DNA of 39,344 nucleotides, taken from UHGV virus genome UHGV-0031292. One strand, written 5' to 3'. Origin of the DNA: a virus. The notes under the pieces were generated by a model. The model was not told where the DNA came from, did no database searches, and saw only the letters and a program-made list of their open reading frames with translations. A program made the translations under genes and the position numbers. Below are positions 5,233 through 39,284 of the stretch, one piece after another; position 1 is the first letter of the stretch; the number at the start of each line of letters is the position of its first letter.

Positions 5233-5309
5233 TTACCGTTTAGGTAATAATTATGCGTATTTGGTTTGATGTCAATAGATATGAGTTAAAAAAATTACCC
5301 ATTAGGTAA
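5233..5309. promoter_or_regulatory. OL-like region: two exact copies of the TTACC-N5-GGTAA palindrome (5233-5247, 5295-5309) before the leftward early operon
   Basis: TTACCGTTTAGGTAA and TTACCCATTAGGTAA, 62 bp apart, between the repressor terminator and the first early-left gene. Confidence 0.65.
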
Positions 5310-5366: not shown

Positions 5367-5951
5367 TTATTGTTTGCTTTTTTCGTTCTGGTTGATGACA
5401 AATTCAATGTAACTTTCGATCTTTGCTTTCTCGGTTTCGGGTAACAATGCGTAGCGCGAGCGGTCATAGTTGATGGTCGCAGGGTCGTGCGGGTGAATCA
5501 GTAATTCATAGCCGTGACGCCCGAATGCGGATGCAACATTCTCCAGGGTGGAAATGGAAACGCTGACCTCATTGTTTAACAGGCGGCTGATTGTCACCTG
5601 GGCGACGCCGGATGCGCGGTGAAGTTTTCCCTGTGTTGAAAGGTCGCGGCTTTCGCTCATCCAGCGTTCCAGGTTGTGAGCCGCCAGTTGACCAATGTCG
5701 CTTGGTCCGACAGGCTGAAAACCTTCCTGAGAAAGCGAGCGATCGATATCAAGCCAGTTACGGGGTTTATTGGCGGCAGCTTCAATTTTTCGTGCAACCT
5801 GGTCGCCGATAACCTTCTTGCCAAGAGCCCAGCGGTTTACCAGATTTGCCTGAGTTCCAAGTTTTTCAGCCATCCGCGTCTGAACACCATTGAATTCACG
5901 GTCGATCAAGTCGTTGAGATTTTGCCTGCGGACGTCCTGGATACTTTTCAT
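5367..5951 (-). CDS. Prophage repressor (CI-like) with two tandem HTH_XRE domains and no recognisable S24 autocleavage domain
   Basis: 194-aa ORF divergent from cro; two HTH segments (QTRMAEKLGTQANLVNRWALGKK... and HRASGVAQVTISRLLNNEVSVSISTLENVA). Confidence 0.65.
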   Translation of the reverse strand: MKSIQDVRRQNLNDLIDREFNGVQTRMAEKLGTQANLVNRWALGKKVIGDQVARKIEAAANKPRNWLDIDRSLSQEGFQPVGPSDIGQLAAHNLERWMSESRDLSTQGKLHRASGVAQVTISRLLNNEVSVSISTLENVASAFGRHGYELLIHPHDPATINYDRSRYALLPETEKAKIESYIEFVINQNEKSKQ

Positions 5952-6105: not shown

Positions 6106-6336
6106 ATGAGCGATAACGGACATTTCGATTTCAAAAAGCACTGGCTTGCACTTACTCCGGATGAGCGTGAAGCCTTCGCACAGGAAGCCGGAACGACGAG
6201 TCACTATATCCAGACTCACTTAACAGGTAAGCGCAAAATGCCAGGTAAAGTATTGATGAATGGGCTTTTTAAAGCCTGTAAAACAAGACAATGGCTGCGC
6301 TCAAAAGCAGAACTGGCATACTTCTTCTACTCATGA
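6106..6336 (+). CDS. Cro-like small DNA-binding regulator
   Basis: 76-aa ORF divergent from the repressor, just downstream of the OR-like sites; HTH-like segment EAGTTSHYIQTHLTGKR. Confidence 0.5.
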   Translation: MSDNGHFDFKKHWLALTPDEREAFAQEAGTTSHYIQTHLTGKRKMPGKVLMNGLFKACKTRQWLRSKAELAYFFYS

Positions 6337-6391: not shown

Positions 6392-6406
6392 GTACCTCAA
6401 AGGTAA
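6392..6406. promoter_or_regulatory. Palindrome copy (variant GTACCTCAAAGGTAA) downstream of the cro terminator
   Basis: Matches xxACC-N5-GGTAA. Confidence 0.45.
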
Positions 6407-6486
6407 TAAAAAACCAAATCTGGTTGATCTTTTTTTTGTGTCAGCACAAAATAACCGTAATCCCAATACTAATAACAGGGCTTACC

Positions 6487-8276: not shown

Positions 8277-8314
8277 TACCAGCGCGATAGCGCATTTTTT
8301 TACGCCTTGATAGT

Positions 8315-8390
8315 TACCTTCTGGGTAACAAAATATTCTAAACCATATTGATTTCGTGTCTTATGTGGTTTTTAATTACCTCAGGGGTAA
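8315..8390. promoter_or_regulatory. Two exact palindrome copies (8315-8329, 8376-8390) immediately upstream of the 8394 gene
   Basis: TTACCTTCTGGGTAA and TTACCTCAGGGGTAA; the second ends 4 bp before the ATG. Confidence 0.6.
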
Positions 8391-8393
8391 ATT

Positions 8394-8738
8394 ATGAGAA
8401 AACAGATACAGGCTCTTGGTCGACTCAAAACAGGCCAGATGAACAAAACAGAATCTGCGTATTGCCAGCACCTTGAGTTGCGTAAACGTGCAGGAGAAAT
8501 CGTCTGGTATCGATTTGAGGGTATCAAGCTGCGGTTAGCTGACAACACGTTCTATACGCCCGATTTTGCTGTGATGCTCGCCACCGGCGAGATGGAACTG
8601 CACGAAGTGAAAGGTTTCTGGACCGACGACGCCAGGGTGAAAACCAAAGTCGCCGCAGATCAGTATCCGTTCCGAATCATCGGGGTAACGGTTAAACCAA
8701 AGAAAGCAGGTGGTGGCTGGAACATCGAAGAGTTCTGA
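8394..8738 (+). CDS. Small PD-(D/E)XK-type nuclease-like protein (DUF1064-like)
   Basis: 114-aa ORF with motif TPDFAV...ELHEVKG. Confidence 0.5.
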   Translation: MRKQIQALGRLKTGQMNKTESAYCQHLELRKRAGEIVWYRFEGIKLRLADNTFYTPDFAVMLATGEMELHEVKGFWTDDARVKTKVAADQYPFRIIGVTVKPKKAGGGWNIEEF

Positions 8739-11042: not shown

Positions 11043-11404
11043 TGGACTATTCACAGTTAAGTGATTTTGAAATTAACGTGGCGGTATTCGAAGCCATTCA
11101 TAGCGGATCACCGGATTACAAAGAAGGTGAGAATGGCGATATGGTGTTTGTCTCATTTGAGGGAGACATTGTAAACGGAGACGCAGTTGAAGTAGAAGTT
11201 GAGCGCGGATCCTTTAACCCATGCGCAAACCCAGCAGACGCATGGCCGATTATTGCTGATAACGGAGTTAACATTCTCTGGGACTGGAACGAAAGCGGTT
11301 TGCACGGTGCTTCTGCCAACCCTATTTGGGAGCATGAGCATGAAAATGTTCTCCGAGCCGCCATGATTGTATTTCTCATGATGCAGGAAAATCAGAATGG
11401 CTAA
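11042..11404 (+). CDS. Hypothetical protein
   Basis: ATG after GGAGGTGAAGTG; acidic 120-aa product. Confidence 0.45.
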   Translation: MDYSQLSDFEINVAVFEAIHSGSPDYKEGENGDMVFVSFEGDIVNGDAVEVEVERGSFNPCANPADAWPIIADNGVNILWDWNESGLHGASANPIWEHEHENVLRAAMIVFLMMQENQNG

Positions 11405-11735
11405 ATCAGCAGCAGAGCGCAAAGCTGCTCAGAGAGCCAGACAAGCTGCATCTGGTGTGCGTAAGCTGGAAATTGTGCTTGATGCTCAGGAAATTGAAAT
11501 GCTTGAGCGTAACTGTGCCGCGCGTCGCCCCGGGCGTGCGCCTTACGAATTTGGTGAGTATATAGCGTTACTGATCCGCCAGGATGATGCACGCGTGCGC
11601 GGGCGTATAAAATCGATCAGCAGAAAATGTTGCGGTAAGTGCGGCGAGAGAGTTCCAGTTAATTCATGCCCGTGTAATGGTGACTCGCAATGCTGGGTGA
11701 CTAAAGGCTGGCATGAAACGAAATTAATAGTGTGA
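11397..11735 (+). CDS. Small basic protein with C-terminal Cys-rich zinc-ribbon-like motif; candidate late-gene regulator (speculative)
   Basis: 112-aa ORF, last early-right gene before terminator and packaging genes; motif CCGKCGERVPVNSCPCNG. Confidence 0.4.
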   Translation: MAKSAAERKAAQRARQAASGVRKLEIVLDAQEIEMLERNCAARRPGRAPYEFGEYIALLIRQDDARVRGRIKSISRKCCGKCGERVPVNSCPCNGDSQCWVTKGWHETKLIV

Positions 11736-11743: not shown

Positions 11744-11784
11744 GAGTAGATTATGCATGATGAATTTGATGGGTTTTGAATACT

Positions 11785-11810
11785 GCCGCCAACTATGGCG
11801 GCTTTATTTT
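11785..11810 (+). terminator. Intrinsic terminator between early-right and packaging genes (GCCGCC-AACTAT-GGCGGC plus TTTATTTT)
   Basis: Perfect 6-bp GC stem and T-rich tail; lies inside the N-terminal extension of the track ORF 11776-12450. Confidence 0.55.
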
Positions 11811-11853
11811 GCATGGTACTATTACCACAACGGTAACTATTACCACGGTGGTT

Positions 11854-12450
11854 ATGATGCCTGCTGAACCTAAAACCTATAAACGCAAATCAACGCAATT
11901 TAAGCCACTAACAGCAATGCAGGAGGCTTATTGCCAGTCATACATCAAAACGCCTGAAAACCAGACTCAGGCAGCGATTAACGCAGGATTCTCCCCAAAT
12001 ACAGCGGCAGTTAAAGCCAGTGTCATGATGCGCGATGAACGCATTCAAAAACGGATTGCCGAGTTGATGGAGGAGCGCAACAAACGAATGCGCGTCAGTG
12101 CTGATTACGTTCTCATGCGCCTGGTGGAGATCGACCAGATGGACGTGATCGACATCCTCAACGACGATGGGAGCCTTAAACCAATCCGTGAGTGGCCGAA
12201 AATCTGGCGCACTACGCTTAGTGGCTTTGATCTGTCATCGACCATCATGAACATGAACGAGGATTCGATAGAGACAATCCTCAAAAAAATTAAATGGCCT
12301 GACAAGGTGAAGAACCTTGAGCTGATTGGTAAGCATGTTGATGTCAACGCGTTCAAAGAACGTCTGGATGTTAATGTGAATGTGACAATTGCTGATCGCA
12401 TAGCAGCAGCCAGGAAGCGACTCAAAGAACGTCAGGATGGTAATCAGTGA
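11854..12450 (+). CDS. Terminase small subunit
   Basis: Directly upstream of and overlapping the large terminase; start moved to MMPAEPK because the longer ORF includes a terminator hairpin. Confidence 0.6.
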   Translation: MMPAEPKTYKRKSTQFKPLTAMQEAYCQSYIKTPENQTQAAINAGFSPNTAAVKASVMMRDERIQKRIAELMEERNKRMRVSADYVLMRLVEIDQMDVIDILNDDGSLKPIREWPKIWRTTLSGFDLSSTIMNMNEDSIETILKKIKWPDKVKNLELIGKHVDVNAFKERLDVNVNVTIADRIAAARKRLKERQDGNQ

Positions 12451-14959: not shown

Positions 14960-15036
14960 CTGGCGTGGCATGCAGGATTCGAACCTGCGACCAACCGCTT
15001 AGAAGGCGGTTGCTCTGTCCGACTGAGCTAATGCCA
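14960..15036 (-). tRNA. tRNA-Arg, anticodon UCU (decodes AGA)
   Basis: Minus-strand 77-nt sequence GTGGCATTAGCTCAGTCGGACAGAGCAACCGCCTTCTAAGCGGTTGGTCGCAGGTTCGAATCCTGCATGCCACGCCA folds as a cloverleaf (7-bp acceptor stem, CTTCTAA anticodon loop, GGTTCGAATCC T-arm, encoded CCA). Confidence 0.85.
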
Positions 15037-15359
15037 CAACGCTGAGAGCACTTAGCCTGTTAAGGCGCCACACTTTGTCGCGGCTCCATAAATGCTCTCA
15101 TCGTTGTACCCTCGTCTCTTCCGAGGCGTCACACCGAATCGCCGGGATGGTGAATCCCCGTGCGCGGAATAAAACCGCTCGACTTGCACATTCCGGCTAC
15201 CTGGTTCGTTTGCTCGAGCAAGGGAGGGTGCCCCTTAAACGTATCCAGACCGCTATCGGCGCATGTGCCATACGCCGTACTGCTCAAAATAAAAGCTCAC
15301 TCCTCCTGTTCAATTTAACGACAAGCCAGTCAGGTTAATAACCGGAATGAACTCTTTGC

Positions 15360-15374
15360 TTACCTGAAAGGTAA
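15360..15374. promoter_or_regulatory. Exact palindrome copy TTACCTGAAAGGTAA upstream of the portal operon; start of a conserved promoter-like module
   Basis: Identical 15-mer at 34324-34338; CATATGTGGTT follows about 45 bp downstream. Confidence 0.6.
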
Positions 15375-15464
15375 TAATTCGTGCGTTAAATGTCAACTAT
15401 CTACGATAAATAAATCATATGTGGTTAAATTGGTAATAATTTAATTGCGTACGGAGTCATTGAT

Positions 15465-15671
15465 ATGTGCATGGGTAGCTCACCATCAGTGCCTGCAACA
15501 CCAGAAGTTCAGGCAGCACCACAGGAGCAGGATGCCGCCGTTGTTGATGCCCGCGACGAAGAAACACGTCGCCGTCGCGCTGCTGCTGGTCGTAGTTCTA
15601 CGCTGCTTACCGGTTCTCAGGGCGACACATCAACCGCTAATACCAGCGGTAAAACGCTGCTTGGTCAGTAA
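15465..15671 (+). CDS. Small hypothetical protein preceding the portal gene
   Basis: 68-aa ORF with GGAG ribosome-binding site; low-complexity Ala/Arg-rich product. Confidence 0.4.
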   Translation: MCMGSSPSVPATPEVQAAPQEQDAAVVDARDEETRRRRAAAGRSSTLLTGSQGDTSTANTSGKTLLGQ

Positions 15672-15685
15672 CCGGAGTCATTGAA

Positions 15686-17365
15686 ATGGCGGAAACAACT
15701 AAAGAGCGATTGAACAAACAGTTCGCACAACTTGAAAGCGAGCGTCAATCGTTCGAGCCGCACTGGCGCGAGTTGAGTGATTACATCAACCCGCGTGGTT
15801 CCCGCTTTCTGACTTCTGAGGTCAACCGTAACGATCGACGCAATACACGCATTATTGATTCGACCGGGACTATGGCGGCGCGCACTCTCGCCAGCGGCAT
15901 GATGTCAGGCATCACAAGCCCCGCGCGTCCGTGGTTTCGCCTGGCTACGCCAGATCCTGAAATGATGGATTATGGCCCTGTTAAGTTGTGGCTTGAGGCG
16001 GTGCAGAACCGCATGAACGATATGTTCAATAAGTCGAATCTCTATCAGTCGCTGCCGCAGTTATACGGAAGCCTCGGCACATACAGCACTGGTGCAATGG
16101 CGGTGCTGGAGGATGACGAGGACATTATTCGCACAATGCCATTCCCGATAGGCAGTTACTACCTGGCTAACTCACCTCGTGGCAGTGTGGACACCTGTTT
16201 TCGCAAGTTCTCTATGACTGTTCGTCAGCTTGTTCAGGAGTTCGGGCTAAATAACGTCAGCGAATCCGTAAAAAGCATGTGGGAAAGCGGCACCTACGAG
16301 AAGTGGATCGAAGTGATGCATTCGGTTTACCCGAACATTGACCGCGATACATCGAAGCTGGATAGCAAGAACAAGCCATTCAAATCGGTTTATTACGAGG
16401 TTGGTGGCGATAACGACAAGTTGTTGCGTGAGTCCGGATTCGATGAGTTTCCAATTATGGCTCCGCGCTGGGAAGTTAATGGCGAAGATGTTTATGGATC
16501 ATCATGCCCGGGTATGCTGGCGCTTGGACCTGTTAAGGCATTGCAGCTTCTCCAGAAGCGCAAGTCGCAGTTGATTGATAAAGCCACCAATCCGCCGATG
16601 GTTGCTCCGACTTCCCTCAAGAATCAGCGTGCCTCCCTTCTTCCTGGCGACATCACGTATATCGATCAGATTACTGGTCAGGATGGCTTCAGGCCTGCTT
16701 ATCTGGTTAACCCCAGTACAGCAGATTTGGTGGCAGACATTCAGGACACTCGTCAAATCATTAACAGCGCCTACTTCGTCGATCTGTTCATGATGTTGCA
16801 GAACATCAATACCCGCTCAATGCCTGTTGAAGCGGTGATCGAAATGAAAGAAGAAAAGCTTCTGATGTTGGGGCCGGTTCTGGAGCGTCTGAACGACGAA
16901 TGTCTTAATCCTCTCATTGACCGCGCTTTCTCGATGATGGTGCGTAAAAACATGCTGCCGCCACCGCCTGACGCGATGGAAGGCATGCCCCTGAAGGTCG
17001 AATACATTTCCGTCATGGCTCAGGCGCAGAAGTCTATCGGCCTGTCCAGTCTGGCGTCCACGGTTAACTTCATTGGTCAACTTGCGCAAGCGAAACCAGA
17101 AGCTCTCGACAAACTCAACGTTGATCAGGCGATCGATGCATTCGCTGATATGTCCGGAGTGTCTCCAACCGTCATTGTTCCGCAGGAACAGGTTGAGCAG
17201 GCTCGCCAACAACGGGCACAGCAGCAACAGCAGCAACAAATGATGGCGATGGGGATGGCGGCGGCACAGGGTGCCAAGACGCTAAGCGAAGCTAAAACTT
17301 CGGATCCGAGTGTTTTGTCAGCTATGGCGAATGCAGTTAGTGGTCAGGGTGGGCAATCACAATGA
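15686..17365 (+). CDS. Portal (head-to-tail connector) protein, podovirus type
   Basis: 559-aa ORF after terminase and before scaffold/capsid; CCGGAG ribosome-binding site. Confidence 0.8.
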   Translation: MAETTKERLNKQFAQLESERQSFEPHWRELSDYINPRGSRFLTSEVNRNDRRNTRIIDSTGTMAARTLASGMMSGITSPARPWFRLATPDPEMMDYGPVKLWLEAVQNRMNDMFNKSNLYQSLPQLYGSLGTYSTGAMAVLEDDEDIIRTMPFPIGSYYLANSPRGSVDTCFRKFSMTVRQLVQEFGLNNVSESVKSMWESGTYEKWIEVMHSVYPNIDRDTSKLDSKNKPFKSVYYEVGGDNDKLLRESGFDEFPIMAPRWEVNGEDVYGSSCPGMLALGPVKALQLLQKRKSQLIDKATNPPMVAPTSLKNQRASLLPGDITYIDQITGQDGFRPAYLVNPSTADLVADIQDTRQIINSAYFVDLFMMLQNINTRSMPVEAVIEMKEEKLLMLGPVLERLNDECLNPLIDRAFSMMVRKNMLPPPPDAMEGMPLKVEYISVMAQAQKSIGLSSLASTVNFIGQLAQAKPEALDKLNVDQAIDAFADMSGVSPTVIVPQEQVEQARQQRAQQQQQQQMMAMGMAAAQGAKTLSEAKTSDPSVLSAMANAVSGQGGQSQ

Positions 17366-19847: not shown

Positions 19848-20183
19848 ATGTCAGGTGAGAAACCAAGATACCGCGTTCTGCGCCTCTCTCATATCCATAA
19901 CACTCTGTGGCCGGAGGGGGCAGAAATCGAATACGAAGGTGAGCCTGGTAGCGCACTGGAACCTGTTAACGATGCAGCCAGACAGGCAAAAGCAAAGGTA
20001 GCAGGAAAGGTGTCAATGGCAGCAACCAGCACCAAAATCATCAACGATGTGTCAGATGATGGTGAGCTGGATAAGCTCCGTGAAGAGTACGAATTGCTCT
20101 TTAACGAGAAGCCACACCATAACGCCAAAGCCGAAACGCTCCGCGAGAAGATCGCAGATAAGCGTAAAGAACTGGGCGTGTAA
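19848..20183 (+). CDS. Hypothetical virion-module protein
   Basis: Start MSGEKPRY after AAGGTGA; followed by terminator. Confidence 0.45.
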   Translation: MSGEKPRYRVLRLSHIHNTLWPEGAEIEYEGEPGSALEPVNDAARQAKAKVAGKVSMAATSTKIINDVSDDGELDKLREEYELLFNEKPHHNAKAETLREKIADKRKELGV

Positions 20184-31443: not shown

Positions 31444-31617
31444 GTGTTTTTAATTATTTTGAGTGTAATAATTTCTGGTGGATTGTTATTTATTGACCAC
31501 TACAAATATTTTCTTAACCCTCAGACTCAAGCTATTTGCTGGTTCATCTTTGTTGTGCAGGGAGTAGTTCTTGTTGCAAGCCTTATTGAGGGGAGGCCTC
31601 TTATTTTTACTGGGTAA
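31444..31617 (+). CDS. Small hydrophobic protein (about 57 aa, 2 predicted TM helices), GTG start
   Basis: Read by eye (VFLIILSVIISGGLLFIDHYKYFLNPQTQAICWFIFVVQGVVLVASLIEGRPLIFTG); AAGGAAG ribosome-binding site; not in ORF track. Confidence 0.3.
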   Translation: MFLIILSVIISGGLLFIDHYKYFLNPQTQAICWFIFVVQGVVLVASLIEGRPLIFTG

Positions 31618-31934: not shown

Positions 31935-31959
31935 AGGCCGCTTTCGCGGCCTTGTTTTT
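31935..31959 (+). terminator. Intrinsic terminator (GGCCGC-TTTC-GCGGCC plus TTGTTTTT)
   Basis: Perfect 6-bp GC stem followed by T-run. Confidence 0.6.
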
Positions 31960-32963: not shown

Positions 32964-33689
32964 TCAGAAGAACCCTGCTTTGTCGTTGATGTACTCCGCG
33001 TGCGTCTGGATATCACGCAGGCATTTGCTCACACCGACGATGTAGCAGAACATGGTGGTCAGCTCCGCCGCCGCGCCCGATACGTCGTGCCCGTCGTCCT
33101 GTAACTGGTTCAGCAGATTCATCAGCAGTGAGTTCTCCGTCAGGCCGAGAACACCAGACGGAGAATGAATCAGACTGCGGTAGCCGGGCTTCAGTGGGGC
33201 GCTGTAGGTTTTGTTCTCTATCTTCATTGCCTGCATCACTGCTGATGCTGTGGCGTTGGCTACCTGGTCGGCAACCATCTTTATGCGTTCTTCCTGCGGG
33301 AGCGAGTTTTTAATGTAACTTCCGGTGCGGCGGATCTGAGGAAGAACCTCACCTGTAACCCATTTACGAAAGCGGTAGGGGATAGTGCCTGGTGTCACTG
33401 CGTCGCGGCAGCGGAGGATCAGTGTGTAGAGGCCTGACTCGGAGATGATGTTGATCTCTTTTACTCGGCTGTCAAAAATCGCACGATGTTCATGCCCTAT
33501 GTTGAACATAGACCTTTCATCATCATCCAGTTTTTCAAGTGCTTGGGTGACGTTTTGGATACGCAGCGCACTACAAACGTCTTGGGCTACAAACCATGGT
33601 TGGCCATCGATAATGATGGAACGGATAGGGTTAACAGATTCAAATTTGAAGATGGCAGTTTGAGCATTAGCCATGGTGGTTATCTCCAC
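32964..33689 (-). CDS. Bro-N (KilA-N-like) domain antirepressor
   Basis: 241-aa ORF with N-terminal Bro-N-like segment (FESVNPIRSIIIDGQPWFVAQDVCSALRIQN); C-terminal region paralogous to the 33990 gene. Confidence 0.7.
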   Translation of the reverse strand: MEITTMANAQTAIFKFESVNPIRSIIIDGQPWFVAQDVCSALRIQNVTQALEKLDDDERSMFNIGHEHRAIFDSRVKEINIISESGLYTLILRCRDAVTPGTIPYRFRKWVTGEVLPQIRRTGSYIKNSLPQEERIKMVADQVANATASAVMQAMKIENKTYSAPLKPGYRSLIHSPSGVLGLTENSLLMNLLNQLQDDGHDVSGAAAELTTMFCYIVGVSKCLRDIQTHAEYINDKAGFF

Positions 33690-33706: not shown

Positions 33707-33827
33707 CACCGCAACGCCAATTACTGGTGGTGAACTGGACAAGGTTGGCGTACCGGCCTAAGTGGTACCGGCGTCCTTTCGGACCCCTGCCCAGCCCACC
33801 ATAATTCGGATATAGCTGTGCTTAACG

Positions 33828-33852
33828 CATAAAAAAACCACGTCTGGCGTGG
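33828..33852 (-). terminator. Intrinsic terminator on minus strand (CCACG-CCAGA-CGTGG plus T7) between the two antirepressor-like genes
   Basis: Plus strand reads AAAAAAACCACGTCTGGCGTGG. Confidence 0.55.
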
Positions 33853-33943
33853 TATGCGCCACTTAGTAACTCGGGACGCCAATCCCGGCACTGGATTTTG
33901 CCAGTGCCCGATTACTATGGCACAAGAGGAGTGCGATGTAAAT

Positions 33944-33958
33944 TTACCGCAAAGGTAA
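33944..33958. promoter_or_regulatory. Exact palindrome copy TTACCGCAAAGGTAA in the antirepressor leader
   Basis: Perfect TTACC-N5-GGTAA. Confidence 0.5.
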
Positions 33959-33989
33959 ATATAAGCACTCCAGTTGGTAATTGTAAACC

Positions 33990-34247
33990 TTATCTGGTTT
34001 GTTTTCGTAATTGTTCGACACAATAGTCGAGATGTGTTTGCAGATCCTGCATAGTCATCTGTGAGCTGGTGACGTAGTTAATCAGTGCAGTCAGTTCGGC
34101 AAGTGGGCCATCGACATTAAATCCATCCTTATCGAGATCCCGGAGTAATTTCATCAAGTGCGATCCCTCCACCAGTGACCTGACGCCTCCCGGCGTGTGA
34201 ATCCTTTCGGTAAATCCGTCTTCCAGTGGATAGTGATACCGCTGCAT
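33990..34247 (-). CDS. Small antirepressor-like protein (about 85 aa), paralogous to the C-terminal domain of the Bro-N antirepressor; putatively LexA-controlled
   Basis: First ATG (MQRYHY) preceded by GGAG; shared motif H(T/S)PxGV..L.E.S.LM.LL..L..DG..V.G...ELT.....V...........LQTH..Y with 32964-33689; LexA box about 22 bp upstream. Confidence 0.55.
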   Translation of the reverse strand: MQRYHYPLEDGFTERIHTPGGVRSLVEGSHLMKLLRDLDKDGFNVDGPLAELTALINYVTSSQMTMQDLQTHLDYCVEQLRKQTR

Positions 34248-34268
34248 CTTATCTTCTCCATGCAATAA

Positions 34269-34284
34269 CTGTATAAATATACAG
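34269..34284. promoter_or_regulatory. LexA (SOS) box CTGTATAAATATACAG (20-mer AACTGTATAAATATACAGTA)
   Basis: Near-perfect match to the CTGT-N8-ACAG consensus, about 22 bp upstream of the antirepressor-like gene start. Confidence 0.7.
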
Positions 34285-34323
34285 TATCAAATAATTTGTT
34301 TGCTATCCAGCACGTTTTGCAAA

Positions 34324-34338
34324 TTACCTGAAAGGTAA
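34324..34338. promoter_or_regulatory. Exact palindrome copy TTACCTGAAAGGTAA upstream of the tailspike; start of a promoter-like module
   Basis: Identical to 15360-15374; CCATATATGGTT follows at 34367-34380. Confidence 0.6.
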
Positions 34339-34442
34339 TATCTGTTCGTATTTATGGGTTGCTTATCCATATATGGTTTTTTAGGTAATAAAATAACCGG
34401 ATATGCGGCGCAACGGGTGCTGCGACTATCTGGAGATTTAAC

Positions 34443-36890
34443 ATGACGGTATCAACCGAAGTTGACCACAACGAATACACCGGTAACGGTGTTACAACGG
34501 CATTCCCTTATACCTTCAGGATTTTCCAGAAATCTGATTTAGTAGTGCAGGTTGTTGACCTGAACGAGAACATCACAGAGCTGATTCTTGATACTGATTA
34601 CATAGTCACTGGTGCTGGAGGGTATAACGGCGGCAATGTAATTCTGTCGAAGGCGTTGGCTAACGGTTATCAGATTTCTATATCAAGAGAGCTACCGGTT
34701 ACGCAGGATACCGATCTGCGCAACCAGGGTAAGTTCTTCGCTGAGGTGCATGAAGACGCATTCGATAAACTGACGATGCTGATACAGCAGGTTAGAAGTT
34801 GGTTTAGGTTGGCTCTGCGTAAACCATCATTTATTGCTAATTATTATGATGCCTTGAACAATTATATTCGCAATCTTCGTGACCCGTCACGGCCTCAAGA
34901 TGCAGCCACAAAAAATTATGTTGATAACTTATCAGTAACGAATTCAAACAGGGCTATACGAGTACCTGAACCATTTATATCATCGCTTCCTGATATTGAT
35001 GGTAGAAAAAACAAATCATTAAGCTTTGATAACGCAGGGGAACCATTGCTTTTAGATCCTGCTCAAAGCGGATTATGGGGTTATGTTCTGATTGATTCGT
35101 TTCAACTTGGAGCGAATATAACGACTAGATTCCAGGCACTACACTGGTCTTTACCTGATGGTAATGGTGAGTATTATCGTTGGGATGGAGAACTCCCAAA
35201 AATAGTTATGCCCGGTTCAACGCCAGATAGTTCTGGGGGCATTGGTCCTGGGGCTTGGTTGAGCGTTGGTGATGCTACACTACGATCCATGCTTTCATCA
35301 TGGAAAGGTTATTCATTTATAGATAATGGGAATCTTTCTTTATACAAAAAGAAAGGCTTGTTCGGTGACGCAGGGGAAGTTGAAACCTCATATGATGTTG
35401 TACAGCATTCTGATGGTTTCTGGTATAAATACACCGGAAGTCTGCCTTTTACTTATGGGGCAGCACCTGATTCCTTATGGGTAAATGTTGGTAATCTTAC
35501 CGGTTTTCCTGAGAATTCCCCGGAAAACTTTGGAGCTATTCCAGGGGTTGAAACATCTGATTGCCTACCCGCAATTAAATTGGCTATTTTAACTGGAACT
35601 CTACGACTAACCCCTGGAGAGACATATTATGTTTCTGATGAGGTTATCATCCCGTCTAACCTTATAATGTTTACAAACTCTGCAACAATTAAAGCGATGC
35701 CATCAGTAACATGGACGGGTAAAGCTGTCGTTAGGGCTAGCAAAAAGCCAGTAGGAACATCCCCGGACCTTTCATTGCCTGAACAACAAGTTCGTGGAAT
35801 TAGGCACATTGGTACATTAAATATTGATGCTAACAATGTTGCGCCTTACGGTTTTTATGGTTTTGGTGTAGTTGCAGAATCTGTCACAGACATTATATAT
35901 GCTTATAATGCCACAGAACTTGGAATTGTACTTCTTGGGAGTTGGTATCATAAAGTAAATCAATATATGGCAATTGATTGTGCAAGAGGTGTCTCTTTGG
36001 CGCATGGTTTCTCCGGTGAAACCGGAGATGTAAACGTTAATGGTGTTGAATTTGGTGTCGTCGCTGCGTATAACACATCAAAATCTTTGTCCTATGGGTA
36101 TGATCCGTATTCATCATCTTTAACCCCACAGCTCATAGGTGCCGGTGTCACTCTCGGGCAAGGATTGGCATCAAGAATAGGAACATTAATAGCTGAAACC
36201 ACAGCAGGCGCTGGTTTAGCTACTGTTAACGCTGTTAGTTGGTCTGTTGGTTCTATGTACTTTGAAAAATGCAGTGAAGCGCTTGAAGATAGTGCAGAGC
36301 CTGATATTGCGATATTATCAACTACAGGAAATGTCGAGGACCACGTATTTGACGTCGGTAATATCCATTTTGGCATAGGGACTGGTATACTGCAAAGAGC
36401 AACGGCAAGTGAGTTTCTCAACATCCAATCCATATACCGTATAGACAATAAAAAAACATGGCATAGTTCCTCAAAGGCGTCTTCAAGTTTTGTAAATTTC
36501 GTAAACTATTACGTTCTCAACCCTTATGATTACGTTAAACCGGTTCAACTGACTAATGACGTAGGCAAGGATGTTATAAGTTCATCGGCAATGCTTAACT
36601 TTAAGGATTTTTCAAATACGCCAAATATCCCATTTTTTTATACTGGCGGTGATCTTGATATTAATATAAGCATATCAGATGGTTCGATTATTGGGCTTGG
36701 TATTCAGGTTCAGTCTGAAGATGGAATTGAATATATAACATGCACATCATCACCGTTTTCAGCAAAGCTAACAAAAAGGAGAAATGCTTATTCTGTTTAT
36801 TGGGTATCAATGGGAACTCCAGTTCAAGAAGCTACTGGCATGGGGGCGATTATAATAACAAAACAAAAAACTTCTCAATGGCTTCGTTAG
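34443..36890 (+). CDS. Tailspike protein (conserved N-terminal virion-attachment region, AT-rich variable C-terminal receptor-binding domain)
   Basis: 815-aa ORF at the end of the virion module; composition shifts to AT-rich from about 34.8 kb. Confidence 0.7.
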   Translation: MTVSTEVDHNEYTGNGVTTAFPYTFRIFQKSDLVVQVVDLNENITELILDTDYIVTGAGGYNGGNVILSKALANGYQISISRELPVTQDTDLRNQGKFFAEVHEDAFDKLTMLIQQVRSWFRLALRKPSFIANYYDALNNYIRNLRDPSRPQDAATKNYVDNLSVTNSNRAIRVPEPFISSLPDIDGRKNKSLSFDNAGEPLLLDPAQSGLWGYVLIDSFQLGANITTRFQALHWSLPDGNGEYYRWDGELPKIVMPGSTPDSSGGIGPGAWLSVGDATLRSMLSSWKGYSFIDNGNLSLYKKKGLFGDAGEVETSYDVVQHSDGFWYKYTGSLPFTYGAAPDSLWVNVGNLTGFPENSPENFGAIPGVETSDCLPAIKLAILTGTLRLTPGETYYVSDEVIIPSNLIMFTNSATIKAMPSVTWTGKAVVRASKKPVGTSPDLSLPEQQVRGIRHIGTLNIDANNVAPYGFYGFGVVAESVTDIIYAYNATELGIVLLGSWYHKVNQYMAIDCARGVSLAHGFSGETGDVNVNGVEFGVVAAYNTSKSLSYGYDPYSSSLTPQLIGAGVTLGQGLASRIGTLIAETTAGAGLATVNAVSWSVGSMYFEKCSEALEDSAEPDIAILSTTGNVEDHVFDVGNIHFGIGTGILQRATASEFLNIQSIYRIDNKKTWHSSSKASSSFVNFVNYYVLNPYDYVKPVQLTNDVGKDVISSSAMLNFKDFSNTPNIPFFYTGGDLDINISISDGSIIGLGIQVQSEDGIEYITCTSSPFSAKLTKRRNAYSVYWVSMGTPVQEATGMGAIIITKQKTSQWLR

Positions 36891-37090: not shown

Positions 37091-37128
37091 AAAGCGCCAT
37101 CTATATTATTGTAGATGGTGCTTTTAAT
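37091..37128 (+). terminator. Intrinsic terminator after the tailspike region (GCGCCATCTA...TAGATGGTGC plus T-run)
   Basis: Inverted repeat followed by TTTTAATTTT. Confidence 0.5.
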
Positions 37129-37241
37129 TTTATCTGTTTTTTTCGATATCAATTATTATATTTCAATTAAATAAATTACATAGCACATAAGTAACTTATA
37201 GCTTATAAAAATACGTTAGTTTTTAGAATGATAAGATTTAT

Positions 37242-37256
37242 CACCTTTAGGGTAAT
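37242..37256. promoter_or_regulatory. Palindrome copy (variant TCACCTTTAGGGTAA) upstream of the lysis cassette; promoter-like module with CCATATATGGTTT at 37288-37300
   Basis: Matches xxACC-N5-GGTAA; downstream element as in the portal and tailspike copies. Confidence 0.5.
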
Positions 37257-37359
37257 TTATGTATTGTCATGGTTAGGTAGTTAGATCCATATATGGTTTA
37301 TTGTGTATGATGAACTCACCAACTAAGGGGGTGTTAATGCACAGTAAACGGTGGTTGAT

Positions 37360-37764
37360 ATGTCAGCTCATCTAACCAGTGAGTCTTTAAATCAGTGGCT
37401 TAGCATGGGTTCTCTGGCTGCGGTCATTGCCGGGGTTCCTCCAGAGGTCGCTCTTGGTGCTTTATCCGGCGCGGTAATATTTATTACCTCTGCCGTTGAG
37501 TATCCAATACGCCGTCGAGTTCTCCTGTCGATGCTCAGCTTTCTCTGCGGGCTACTCTTCTACAAACCGACTGCATCAATTCTTATCGGCGTAGCCAGCC
37601 TGATCCCAACTATCACGCAGGACTCATTCGAGAAAGGGATCGTCTTTTCTGCTGGCGCGTTCGTGTCGGCAATCGTCGCAGTACGTATTGGAATCTGGCT
37701 CTATCACCGCTCAGATAATCCACGCGATTTAATCCCGGGGAGAAAAGACGATGACAACTCATGA
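37360..37764 (+). CDS. Holin (multi-pass membrane protein)
   Basis: Start MSAHLTSE; about 134 aa with several hydrophobic helices and charged C-terminus; first gene of lysis cassette. Confidence 0.6.
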   Translation: MSAHLTSESLNQWLSMGSLAAVIAGVPPEVALGALSGAVIFITSAVEYPIRRRVLLSMLSFLCGLLFYKPTASILIGVASLIPTITQDSFEKGIVFSAGAFVSAIVAVRIGIWLYHRSDNPRDLIPGRKDDDNS

Positions 37765-38059
37765 GCTGCTTTTACTTATTGCCAATGCAGTTATTTGTAC
37801 TGGCATAGCAATTCGCGTTGTCACATTCCGGCGTAACGGCTCTCAACATCGAAGATGGGGAGGGTGGCTTGCTTATTTCCTTATTGTTGCTGCGGCCAGT
37901 ATTCCTGTTCGTGTCGTCTATGCAATCTGGTTACGCACGCCAATGGCTGTGGATTTATCTGAGGTCATTATCAACGCTGTCATGCTTGCCGCTGTTATTA
38001 AAACACGCGGTAATGTTGTTCAGATTTTCAAAATATCGAGGTCTAAACATGGAGATTAA
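37751..38059 (+). CDS. Second small membrane protein of the lysis cassette (holin or antiholin-like)
   Basis: 102-aa ORF, 2-3 hydrophobic helices, overlaps neighbours. Confidence 0.5.
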
Positions 38060-38678
38060 ACAATTCCAGCGAGCTGCTGGTATCAGCGAGTCGCTTGCCG
38101 CACGCTGGTTCTTGCATATAACTTCTGCGATGAAAGAGTTTGGTATCAGCAACACCGAAAATCAGGCAATGTTTATTGCCCAGGTCGGGCATGAGTCTGG
38201 TGGCTTCACCCGGTTGCAGGAGAATTTCAACTACAGCGTTACCGGACTGGCGAGCTTTGTCAGGACTGGACGCCTCACCCAGGGACAGGCTAATGCACTG
38301 GGGCGCCGTGCTGGTGAACCACCATTGCCACTCGAGCGCCAGCGCGCGATCGCAAATCTGGTGTACAGCAAACGCATGGGTAACAATGCTCCTGGTGATG
38401 GCTGGAATTACCGTGGGCGCGGGCTTATCCAGATTACCGGTTTGAATAACTATCGTGACTGCGGAAACGGCTTGAAAGTGGACCTGCTGGAGAATCCTGA
38501 ACTGCTGGCGCAGGATGAATATGCGGCTCGTAGTGCGGCGTGGTTTTTTGCCAGCAAAGGCTGCATGAAGTATACCGGCGATATTGCACGTGTAACTCTG
38601 ATTATCAATGGTGGCAGTAACGGCATAGACGACCGGCGTGCGCGGTACATCACAGCAAGTAAGGTACTGGCGGTATGA
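38049..38678 (+). CDS. Endolysin, glycoside hydrolase family 19-like (chitinase-type lysozyme)
   Basis: Start MEIKQFQ after GAGG; conserved [12 protein letters not shown] and GRGLIQITG motifs. Confidence 0.8.
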
Positions 38679-39157
38679 TCTGGGCATTCGTAAAAGAATA
38701 CTGGAAACAGTTGATTATCATGGCGGTGCTTGCTGTTCTGGTCATATCAGGAGTTGTTGCCTGGAATGTACACGGCAGCCGTCAGTACGACACCGGGTAT
38801 GCGCAGGCGGAAGAAGACCGCAAAGCCGAAGAAGAAAAAGTTCGTCAGTACTACGAACAGGAGAAAGTGACTAATGAACGTGAAGCGCAGCAGAGGATCG
38901 ACCAGGCGCACAATGATGCTCTTGATGCTGCTGCTCGCGCTGGCAGGTTGCAGCAACAGCTCGTTGCCATCCGTGAGCAGCTCAGGCAGTATAACGCCAT
39001 TGTCGGCGCTGGGACGTCAGCCGCAGACACCGGAATTTTGCTTGCCGACGTGCTCAGCAAATCTCTCGAGAGAAACAGACAACTGGCAGAGTATGCTGAC
39101 CGGGCAGCCGAAGCCGGAAGAGTCTGCGAAAAACAGTACGACACCCTGACCAGATAG
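38675..39157 (+). CDS. i-spanin (Rz-like): N-terminal TM anchor plus coiled-coil periplasmic domain
   Basis: 160-aa ORF overlapping the endolysin stop; N-terminal hydrophobic helix then charged coiled-coil sequence. Confidence 0.7.
38874..39149 (+). CDS. o-spanin (Rz1-like) lipoprotein embedded in the +1 frame of the i-spanin gene
   Basis: Signal peptide with lipobox (LLLALAGCS), Pro/Ser-rich mature part, entirely within 38675-39157. Confidence 0.6.
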   Translation: MNVKRSRGSTRRTMMLLMLLLALAGCSNSSLPSVSSSGSITPLSALGRQPQTPEFCLPTCSANLSRETDNWQSMLTGQPKPEESAKNSTTP

Positions 39158-39267: not shown

Positions 39268-39284
39268 ATTGAGTGGGAATGATT
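39268..39284. repeat. attR core, 17-bp direct repeat ATTGAGTGGGAATGATT
   Basis: Exact copy of 61-77 at the far end of the prophage, followed by a terminator hairpin. Confidence 0.8.

Follow-up and report, generated by a model that had tools for sequence, protein, structure and literature searches.

The stretch of DNA analysed here, UHGV virus genome UHGV-0031292 (39,344 nucleotides; the window), is an E. coli prophage in its integrated form, of the phiV10/epsilon15 type (genus Uetakevirus), and our subject is a promoter-like module that is repeated in it ahead of the portal, tailspike and lysis operons. Identity to phiV10, ZX5, PAS61 and TL-2011b reaches 97-99% over long stretches. The same 17-bp attachment (att) core, ATTGAGTGGGAATGATT, stands at both ends (61-77 and 39268-39284), from which it follows that the window holds the complete prophage. 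This core is the one given for phage ZX5, for which the corresponding attB has been placed at the 3' end of guaA (PMC9782041). The gene order is that of phiV10, with int, a leftward early operon, rep (5367-5951, minus strand; HTH_3 match), the cro-like gene of gp39 (6106-6336, plus strand; phrog_35), the replication genes, an accessory block, terS and terL. Rep is the presumed binder of the palindrome, and gp39 a candidate binder of the dyad, that make up the modules described below; the accessory block has as its last gene that of a gp49-like 'transcriptional regulator' (11397-11735). After terL comes a gap with minus-strand features and then, on the plus strand, the portal/head/tail operon, which begins with the gp3-like gene (15465-15671; phrog_831) and the portal gene (15686-17365) and runs to about 31617. 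Minus-strand antirepressor genes follow, and after them, again on the plus strand, the tailspike gene (34443-36890) and the lysis cassette of membrane protein, holin, endolysin and spanins (37360-39157).

Modules at the start of the late operons

Three modules, here called R1, R2 and R3, were located by direct reading of the sequence, and the preliminary description, which had noted them as a palindrome followed by the box CATAT(G/A)TGGTT and then by GGTAATA, proved right as to their existence. R1, before gp3 and portal, has the palindrome TTACCTGAAAGGTAA (hereafter P, a Rep-type operator) at 15360-15374, the box CATATGTGGTT at 15416-15426 and the GGTAATA element GGTAATAA at 15432-15439. R2, before the tailspike gene, repeats the palindrome TTACCTGAAAGGTAA at 34324-34338, identical to that of R1 in every letter as had been stated, with the box CATATATGGTT at 34368-34378 and GGTAATAA at 34384-34391. 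R3, before the lysis cassette, has a palindrome with one mismatch (TCACCTTTAGGGTAA, 37241-37255) and the box CATATATGGTT at 37288-37298. To judge from the epsilon15 sequence, in which the counterparts of the R1 and R2 palindromes have the cores TAAAA and TGTAA, the identity of the two N5 cores in the window (TGAAA) is incidental.

Exact matches to the box consensus CATATRTGGTT number three, all on the plus strand and 41, 29 and 32 nt after the palindrome in R1, R2 and R3, respectively; 0.04 matches are expected in 39 kb, and three were reached in no shuffle. For each of the three to lie 20-50 nt downstream of some one of the window's 16 palindromes, the probability by chance is about 2e-6. The third element that had been proposed is present in R1 and R2 and missing from R3, where tattgtgTATGAT comes after the box and the sole GGTAAT is the right arm of the palindrome. 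What the three modules have in common at this place is instead a -10-like hexamer. On alignment of the regions, all three modules were found in phiV10, SPN1S, Tyrion, epsilon15 and PAT1, with palindrome, box and -10-like hexamer kept and the spacer between palindrome and box diverged without insertions or deletions, strongly so in the tailspike and lysis modules. The promoter-like modules are hence homologous and conserved across the genus, one at the start of each unit.

The contexts of the box in IMG/VR loci reveal it to be the right part, two-thirds, of a 14-bp dyad, AACCATATATGGTT (hereafter B), which is perfect in the lysis modules (R3 equivalent) of phiV10 and Tyrion. The R1 copy, AATCATATGTGGTT (15413-15426), is unchanged across a six-genome alignment (A1); the copies of R2 (34365-34378; alignment A2) and R3 (37285-37298) both read ATCCATATATGGTT. 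A consensus scan detected no canonical sigma70 promoter at the three late modules. Their -10-like hexamers are conserved, and the position of a -35 is not conserved or is filled by the left part of the dyad. In R1 the candidates are TAATAA (15434-15439) or TAATTT (15437-15442), 7 or 10 nt after the box. In R2 the hexamer is TAAAAT (34389-34394), 10 nt after the box. The tailspike class (55 unique sequences) has TA(A/G/C)AAT in most relatives, represented by TAGAAT, TACAAT and TAAAAT and accompanied by variants such as TAAACT; in the variant GGTGGCTAAAAT of this class, in which GGTGGC replaces GGTAATA, the GGTAA is lost and TAAAAT retained. In R3 the candidates are TATTGT (37299-37304) and TATGAT (37306-37311; TATAAT in phiV10), 0 or 7 nt after the box. 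In the late promoters this puts the centre of the dyad at about -27 to -30, or, in the lysis class, at -19.5 if the proximal hexamer is used. A rightward -10 in the right arm of the palindrome was rejected, its -35 not being conserved and its last position being variable. Leftward promoters in R2 and R3, of the type found at module E (see below), were likewise rejected, the minus strand having no conserved -35 or -10.

That the late genes form separate units was also borne out. Terminator-like hairpins on the plus strand lie at 31587-31603, 31935-31952 and 37091-37124; terL is separated from gp3 by minus-strand genes and a minus-strand tRNA, and gp18 from the tailspike gene by minus-strand genes. 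Because these genes and hairpins intervene, the late genes are not a single continuous transcript from the terminase promoter, and the layout supports at least four rightward late units: terS-terL, gp3 to gp18, tailspike, and lysis. At terS-terL, the fourth of them, there is no box; palindromes and an extended -10 are present.

Each late module has features of its own in its surroundings. Before R1, in the gap preceding gp3, the minus strand encodes a tRNA-Arg(UCU) at 14961-15037 (ARAGORN and Rfam, 73 bits), behind which a strong terminator-like hairpin faces leftward (14917-14882). TTGACA (15396-15391) and TACCTT (15373-15368), separated by 17 bp, form a candidate leftward promoter whose -10 and +1 overlap with the R1 palindrome; that palindrome may thus serve primarily to control the leftward tRNA unit. 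Within the TGTCAA motif, the GTCAA core is kept in the consensus of the gp3 class. To the left of R2, the block CTATCCAGCA (34303-34312) is invariant in six genomes (A2), lies 12 nt from the palindrome, between it and a LexA-controlled ant gene, and matches neither dyad. After R3, the lysis-module leader (37337-37375) is conserved almost base for base and has a 12-codon upstream open reading frame (ATGCACAGTAAACGGTGG...) behind a strong AAGGGGG ribosome-binding site, overlapping the start of the first lysis-cassette gene at 37360. In the epsilon15 record an RNase III site is annotated over the same leader stretch.

Palindrome P and dyad B as separate sites

The palindrome in its general form, TTACCNNNNNGGTAA (TTACC-N5-GGTAA), occurs 16 times in the window with at most one mismatch, compared to 0.64 expected, and 15 of the 16 copies are intergenic (binomial P ~4e-17, for an intergenic share of 6.7% that derives from an approximate, hand-assembled list of coding sequences). 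Apart from the late modules (15360, 34324 and 37241), the copies start at 211 (before int), 5233 and 5295 (the promoter PL), 6007 and 6055 (between rep and cro), 6392 (after the cro terminator), 8314 and 8376 (the next early promoter, P43), 11822 and 11840 (before terS), 14742, 32884 and 33944. A syntenic set is found in epsilon15, SPN1S, Tyrion, PAT1 and the Klebsiella phage of the genus. Eight homologous sites are annotated as protein_bind 'repressor' in the epsilon15 RefSeq record (NC_004775.2), and those at 2931-2947 (before gp3) and 19895-19911 (before tailspike) align with 15360 and 34324 of the window; the record has none before the lysis cassette, before int or inside the operator region OR, and its total of eight compares to 16 in the window. 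Rep of the window aligns over its full length with PDB 5d50 'Repressor', the solved structure of SPC32H Rep (E 3.5e-42). SPC32H Rep is a tetramer on palindromic sites, with DNA-binding domains paired between different dimers (PMC9638917). Based on this homology and the prior annotation, P is understood as the operator of the prophage repressor Rep.

The position of P at the early promoters agrees with that assignment. At PR (TTGTTA-17-TATTAT, ahead of cro) palindrome 6055 lies within the spacer. At PL (5233-5309, minus strand; TTGACA at 5275-5270, 16 bp, TAATTA at 5253-5248) the promoter stands between P 5233-5247 and P 5295-5309, so that one palindrome is at about +1 and the other at about -61. 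P43, a canonical sigma70 promoter (8314-8390, plus strand; TTGATT at 8348-8353, 17 bp, TTTAAT at 8371-8376), is flanked by P 8314-8328 and P 8376-8390. The extended -10 of the terS promoter, TGgTACTAT, opens palindrome 11822 with its last base, and palindrome 211 lies within the spacer of the int promoter. On the elements of PR, PL, P43 and the terS and int promoters, these are geometries of repression. P stands near almost every promoter, so each operon would be silenced individually in the lysogen, as homology and the prior annotation support. The operator pairs flanking PL and P43 are 62 bp apart, centre to centre, in nearly every genome (epsilon15, SPN1S, Tyrion, PAT1, BUCT711), a spacing that may reflect a single Rep tetramer bridging two sites; the PL pair of Klebsiella phage BUCT711 is 63 bp apart, and the rep-cro pair of the window 48 bp. 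Palindromes also overlap the ribosome-binding sites of genes at 8394 and ~14737 (minus strand). The terS reading frame of the phiV10 annotation (11776-12450, TTG start) includes palindromes 11822 and 11840, which in epsilon15 and Tyrion precede the annotated start; translation probably begins at the ATG at 11857, in which case the second palindrome overlaps the ribosome-binding site.

These placements bear on the model of the preliminary description, by which palindrome, box and GGTAATA form one late architecture; spelled out, the palindrome would be bound by a dedicated late activator acting in the class I manner from about -70 to -80. With the best -10s the palindrome is indeed centred at -70 (tailspike), -70 (lysis) and -82 (gp3), which is roughly a class I position, and its spacing is conserved. 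The model nonetheless appears highly improbable to us. The same type of operator recurs at PL, PR, P_int, the terS promoter and others, and at early promoters it overlaps the -10, the +1 or the spacer, where only repression is possible; epsilon15 annotates it as a repressor site; GGTAATA is missing in the third module and in some tailspike-class variants; and 21 of the 54 lysis-class promoters, together with that of ZX5, are without the palindrome and keep the box. The palindrome is therefore not to be counted as part of a specifically late architecture, and at -70 to -82 in the late modules it is too far upstream to occlude the polymerase alone.

The two sites are separable. Among the 54 unique upstream sequences of the lysis class, P lies 30-33 nt before the box in 33 and is absent in 21, and the contigs that lack P there have not lost it from the tailspike module. 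Matches of the lysis cassette to other phages in BLAST start from dyad B, which forms the 5' limit of its conservation. Elsewhere ZX5 agrees with the window at 98% identity, but the region upstream of its lysis cassette and the leader are unrelated; there, gattCATATATGGTT is followed directly by TACTAT, with no palindrome. In Klebsiella phage BUCT711 the lysis cassette comes directly after the tailspike gene, without a module of its own. The region upstream of the lysis cassette is a recombination hot spot, with many IMG/VR contigs replaced only upstream of the dyad. Since B is kept where P is lost (the 21 of 54 lysis variants, and ZX5), the dyad and the -10 make up the core unit, to which the palindrome is an add-on.

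Dyad B is, furthermore, no late-only element, contrary to what its first description implied. With up to two mismatches it has six copies in the window, compared to 0.12 expected: three in the late modules, one each in two further modules, D and E, and one in a coding region (1929) that is probably fortuitous. Module D (6392-6452, plus strand) begins with P 6392-6406, just beyond the cro terminator; 5 nt past this palindrome begins B, AACCAAATCTGGTT (6412-6425), the last two bases of which overlap a -35-like TTGATC (6424-6429), and 17 bp further is a -10-like CAAAAT (6447-6452). The module precedes gp40 and the replication operon, and its arrangement is common to six genomes and the Klebsiella phage. 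Module E (33944-33999, minus strand) has B, AACCTTATCTGGTT (33986-33999), adjoining the -35 hexamer of TTTACA-18-TATATT, a leftward promoter (33987 to 33958), with P 33944-33958 at about +1. It lies ahead of an isrK-like RNA, a C4-like RNA and a Bro-N antirepressor gene. In D and E alike, the dyad is centred at about -41.

Half-sites of B are found in the spacers of the two early promoters bracketed by P, namely the degenerate CGTATTTGGTT at PL (5256-5266) and CTTATGTGGTT at P43 (8360-8370). In Tyrion and the Klebsiella phage both spacers have copies of the dyad, of which the window retains the better half only. The segments 5233-5270 and 8315-8390, which had been listed as weaker relatives of the late modules, are thus genuine relatives as far as the sites are concerned, and strong early rather than late promoters.

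The surroundings of module E carry further elements of antirepressor control. The C4 antisense RNA (66 bits) and the isrK Hfq-binding RNA (67 bits) were identified by Rfam at 33723-33806 and 33831-33907 on the minus strand, and directly downstream of them is the Bro-N antirepressor gene (32964-33689, minus strand), in a cassette like P1 immI or that of Gifsy; the mechanically derived reading frame 33721-34023 over these RNAs is unlikely to be a gene. Just upstream of a small ant-like gene (33990-34265, minus strand; phrog_450) stands a perfect LexA box, CTGTATAAATATACAG (34269-34284). LexA box and C4 RNA together imply two tandem antirepressor-type genes, one SOS-controlled and the other behind the C4 RNA.

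The spacing between the two sites is fixed within each class of module. P lies exactly 41 nt before the box in 69 of the 74 unique gp3-class upstream sequences from IMG/VR, the remaining 5 being point variants, so that the palindrome hardly varies in this class. The P-to-B spacer is 29 nt in the 55 unique tailspike-class sequences (of 108 unique modules), and 32 nt in the lysis class, a few members having 30, 31 or 33. From centre to centre, P and B are 19.5 (D), 40.5 (tailspike), 41.5 (E), 43.5 (lysis) and 52.5 bp (gp3) apart. In P43 of Tyrion and of the Klebsiella phage, as well as in PL of Tyrion, B is 19.5 and 42.5 bp from the flanking palindromes, with the Klebsiella PL as an exception at 21.5 and 41.5 bp. 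These distances are near 2, 4 and 5 helical turns (offsets to ~1.5 bp), which suggests that the proteins at P and B are on the same face of the DNA.

Candidate proteins at dyad B

Taken together, the modules may each be the control region of a separate lytic operon, composed of two independent symmetric protein-binding sites and a sigma70 -10, a reading of the sequence that we regard as nearly as probable as its contrary. Rep on P would keep each operon off individually in the lysogen. A dimeric, phage-encoded regulator of the lytic cycle on B would bring RNA polymerase to the late promoters that lack a -35, would, from about -41, aid the weak promoters of modules D and E, and may act within the spacers of PL and P43 to damp these promoters. 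Placed 2, 4 or 5 turns from B, Rep at P would antagonise the B-bound factor or occlude its upstream contacts. The more far-reaching formulation, a two-site promoter code of the Uetakeviruses in which B is the target of an undescribed global early-to-late switch that shares a DNA face with Rep at fixed helical distances, represses PL and P43 from their spacers and activates the replication and antirepressor promoters and the three late ones without a -35, with Rep as its direct antagonist in the lysogen, is offered tentatively and as rather unlikely in its full extent.

B could alternatively be an auxiliary, lower-affinity operator of the Rep complex, the tetramer holding P and touching B with another part, in which case the late promoters would be weak constitutive sigma70 promoters that fire without any activator once the antirepressor removes Rep. 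The occurrence of P and B together within ~20-55 bp at near-integral helical turns, and the constancy of their spacing although the sequence between them has diverged, are what such a complex would produce. B lies inside the RNA polymerase footprint (~-41 to -19), where P at -70 to -82 alone could not occlude, and at PL and P43 it stands between two P sites 62 bp apart. The half-sites, AACC-N6-GGTT in B and TTACC-N5-GGTAA in P, have an ACC/GGT core in common. The Rep tetramer pairs domains of different dimers on palindromes (PMC9638917), and the C-terminal half of Rep has a second HTH_3 motif. We consider this account unlikely all the same, given that B has a consensus of its own in which the CATAT core is conserved, unlike the free N5 core of P, that B persists without P, and that late promoters with no usable -35 would be very weak unaided. 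The C-terminal domain of Rep is also said to be the part for tetramerisation and Ant binding, not a DNA binder.

B is the same in phages of Escherichia, Salmonella, Enterobacter and Klebsiella. This constancy would suit a host factor of the Enterobacteriaceae, or a structural role of B as a flexible, AT-rich bending dyad or as a 5' RNA element, and so would its varying position relative to the -10 and its location between operator pairs that need to be brought together. Such an origin seems improbable, more so than the attribution to Rep: compared by eye with consensus sequences, B misfits the sites of IHF, CRP, DnaA, PhoP, Fis and sigma54 and resembles the NrdR box only in part (~5 of 7 positions per half-site); as RNA, it could give no more than a 4-5 bp AU-rich stem, and it is upstream of the -10-like hexamers in the late modules, thus probably untranscribed there.

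For the phage-encoded regulator proposed at B, gp39 would be the leading candidate, with the gp49-like protein second. The gp39 gene is the sole one between PR and the first terminator. The helix-turn-helix (HTH) of gp39 aligns weakly with the N-terminal domain of Rep, a relation that fits the related ACC/GGT half-sites of P and B. The gp39 family has 37 phage records, compared to 36 with a B-bearing lysis cassette, and is nearly confined to B-carrying phages. No Pfam family is assigned to the gp49-like protein (phrog_536). Its N-terminus is basic and its tail Cys-rich (CCGKCG...CPCNGDSQC); that tail and the strand-helix-helix start predicted for the protein would suit a DNA binder. Scanned against Pfam and NCBIfam at relaxed settings, it gave sub-threshold matches only, such as to a 'LexA regulated protein' family (E 0.045). 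Its family is much wider, with 153 records; homologs, all without a name in the protein database, occur in N15 (gp46), N15-like Klebsiella phages, P2-like Yersinia phages and many Vibrio phages. In one such Yersinia phage, P and B sites are not above chance, which argues weakly against gp49 as the binder of B.

Several observations weigh against a lytic regulator at B. Between B and the best -10 there are 10 nt in the tailspike class, 7 (or 0) in the lysis class and 0 in ZX5, a variability that is unusual for a positioned activator. Located in the spacers of PL and P43, which have good -35 and -10 elements, B should repress, and it could be simply a repressor site. Between rep and cro the B site is absent, and a Cro without a site there would be atypical. 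The structure model of the gp49-like protein is of low confidence (predicted local distance difference test, pLDDT, 61), with no fold assigned. Among the ten proteins scanned against Pfam, PHROGs and NCBIfam, there is no homolog of the known late activators (Lpa, Ogr/Delta/B, C/Mor, MotA/AsiA), the only regulator-like matches being a PerC-like protein and the 'transcriptional regulator' phrog_536. Transcription-start, binding or expression data for this phage group were not found in the literature reached.

Relation to known switches

The network of P sites was known before; B and its distribution are apparently undescribed. The epsilon15 annotation and the accessible literature, a scope that leaves the primary epsilon15 and SPC32H papers outside, do not mention the AACCATATATGGTT dyad, and the ZX5 paper (PMC9782041) and the phiV10 reporter-phage paper have nothing on operators or late promoters; matches to the literal motifs in that literature were all unrelated. 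The Rep/Ant pair of SPC32H belongs to the same genus as the window, and Rep of the window is homologous to SPC32H Rep. A LexA box reportedly precedes the ant-like gene of SPC32H.

The late promoters of phage P1 combine a -10 hexamer with a short inverted repeat near -22 that replaces the -35, a layout that follows the logic of B and its -10. P1 resembles the window in having one repressor with scattered operators at many operons, and late operons with special promoters that need a phage factor, Lpa (PMC8198154); the window shares with it, moreover, an immI-like C4 antisense RNA beside an antirepressor gene. The differences are that the C1 operators of P1 are asymmetric 17-mers and C1 is unrelated to Rep, that a homolog of Lpa was not detected among the scanned proteins of the window, and that B is also at early promoters and at a variable distance from the -10. 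P1 is by analogy the closest in logic, the resemblance being functional and not one of membership. As in late promoters of the P1 Lpa, T4 MotA, P2 Ogr and Mu C types, the late modules have a -10 without a -35; the element itself, in the window, is not restricted to late operons.

The gp71 stoperators of mycobacteriophage L5 are likewise many repressor sites across the early and late regions of a temperate phage genome. Those sites are asymmetric and, placed in a single orientation inside transcribed regions, stop elongation, whereas the sites of the window are symmetric, are intergenic in 15 of 16 cases and stand at the starts of operons. A dyad in the spacers of early promoters and in the place of the -35 of late ones is the layout expected of a switch like phi29 p4 or lambda CI (PR/PRM), which from one kind of site represses early and activates late promoters, the p4 sites of phi29 being further upstream, near -82. 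With lambda the window has in common the temperate enterobacterial lifestyle and the divergent cro-like and repressor genes. Unlike in lambda, where Q antiterminates a single late transcript, the late genes are split by minus-strand genes and terminators, each block having its own module, and no Q-like protein is among the window proteins scanned.

Phages of the epsilon15/phiV10 type are used as reporter phages and serve as models for virion structure and for repressor-antirepressor control, and in the literature reached we found no account of how their late genes are switched on. Even if neither the proposed role of P nor that of B should be true, the modules are a well-defined annotation feature that marks where promoters and operators lie in at least seven transcription units. 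If the P network silences the operons separately, induction would need no lambda-like cascade. If B is the site of a lytic regulator, it would represent the missing late-gene switch of the genus, possibly with a part in early shut-off too, and it would provide a short, portable promoter element for the engineering of these phages.

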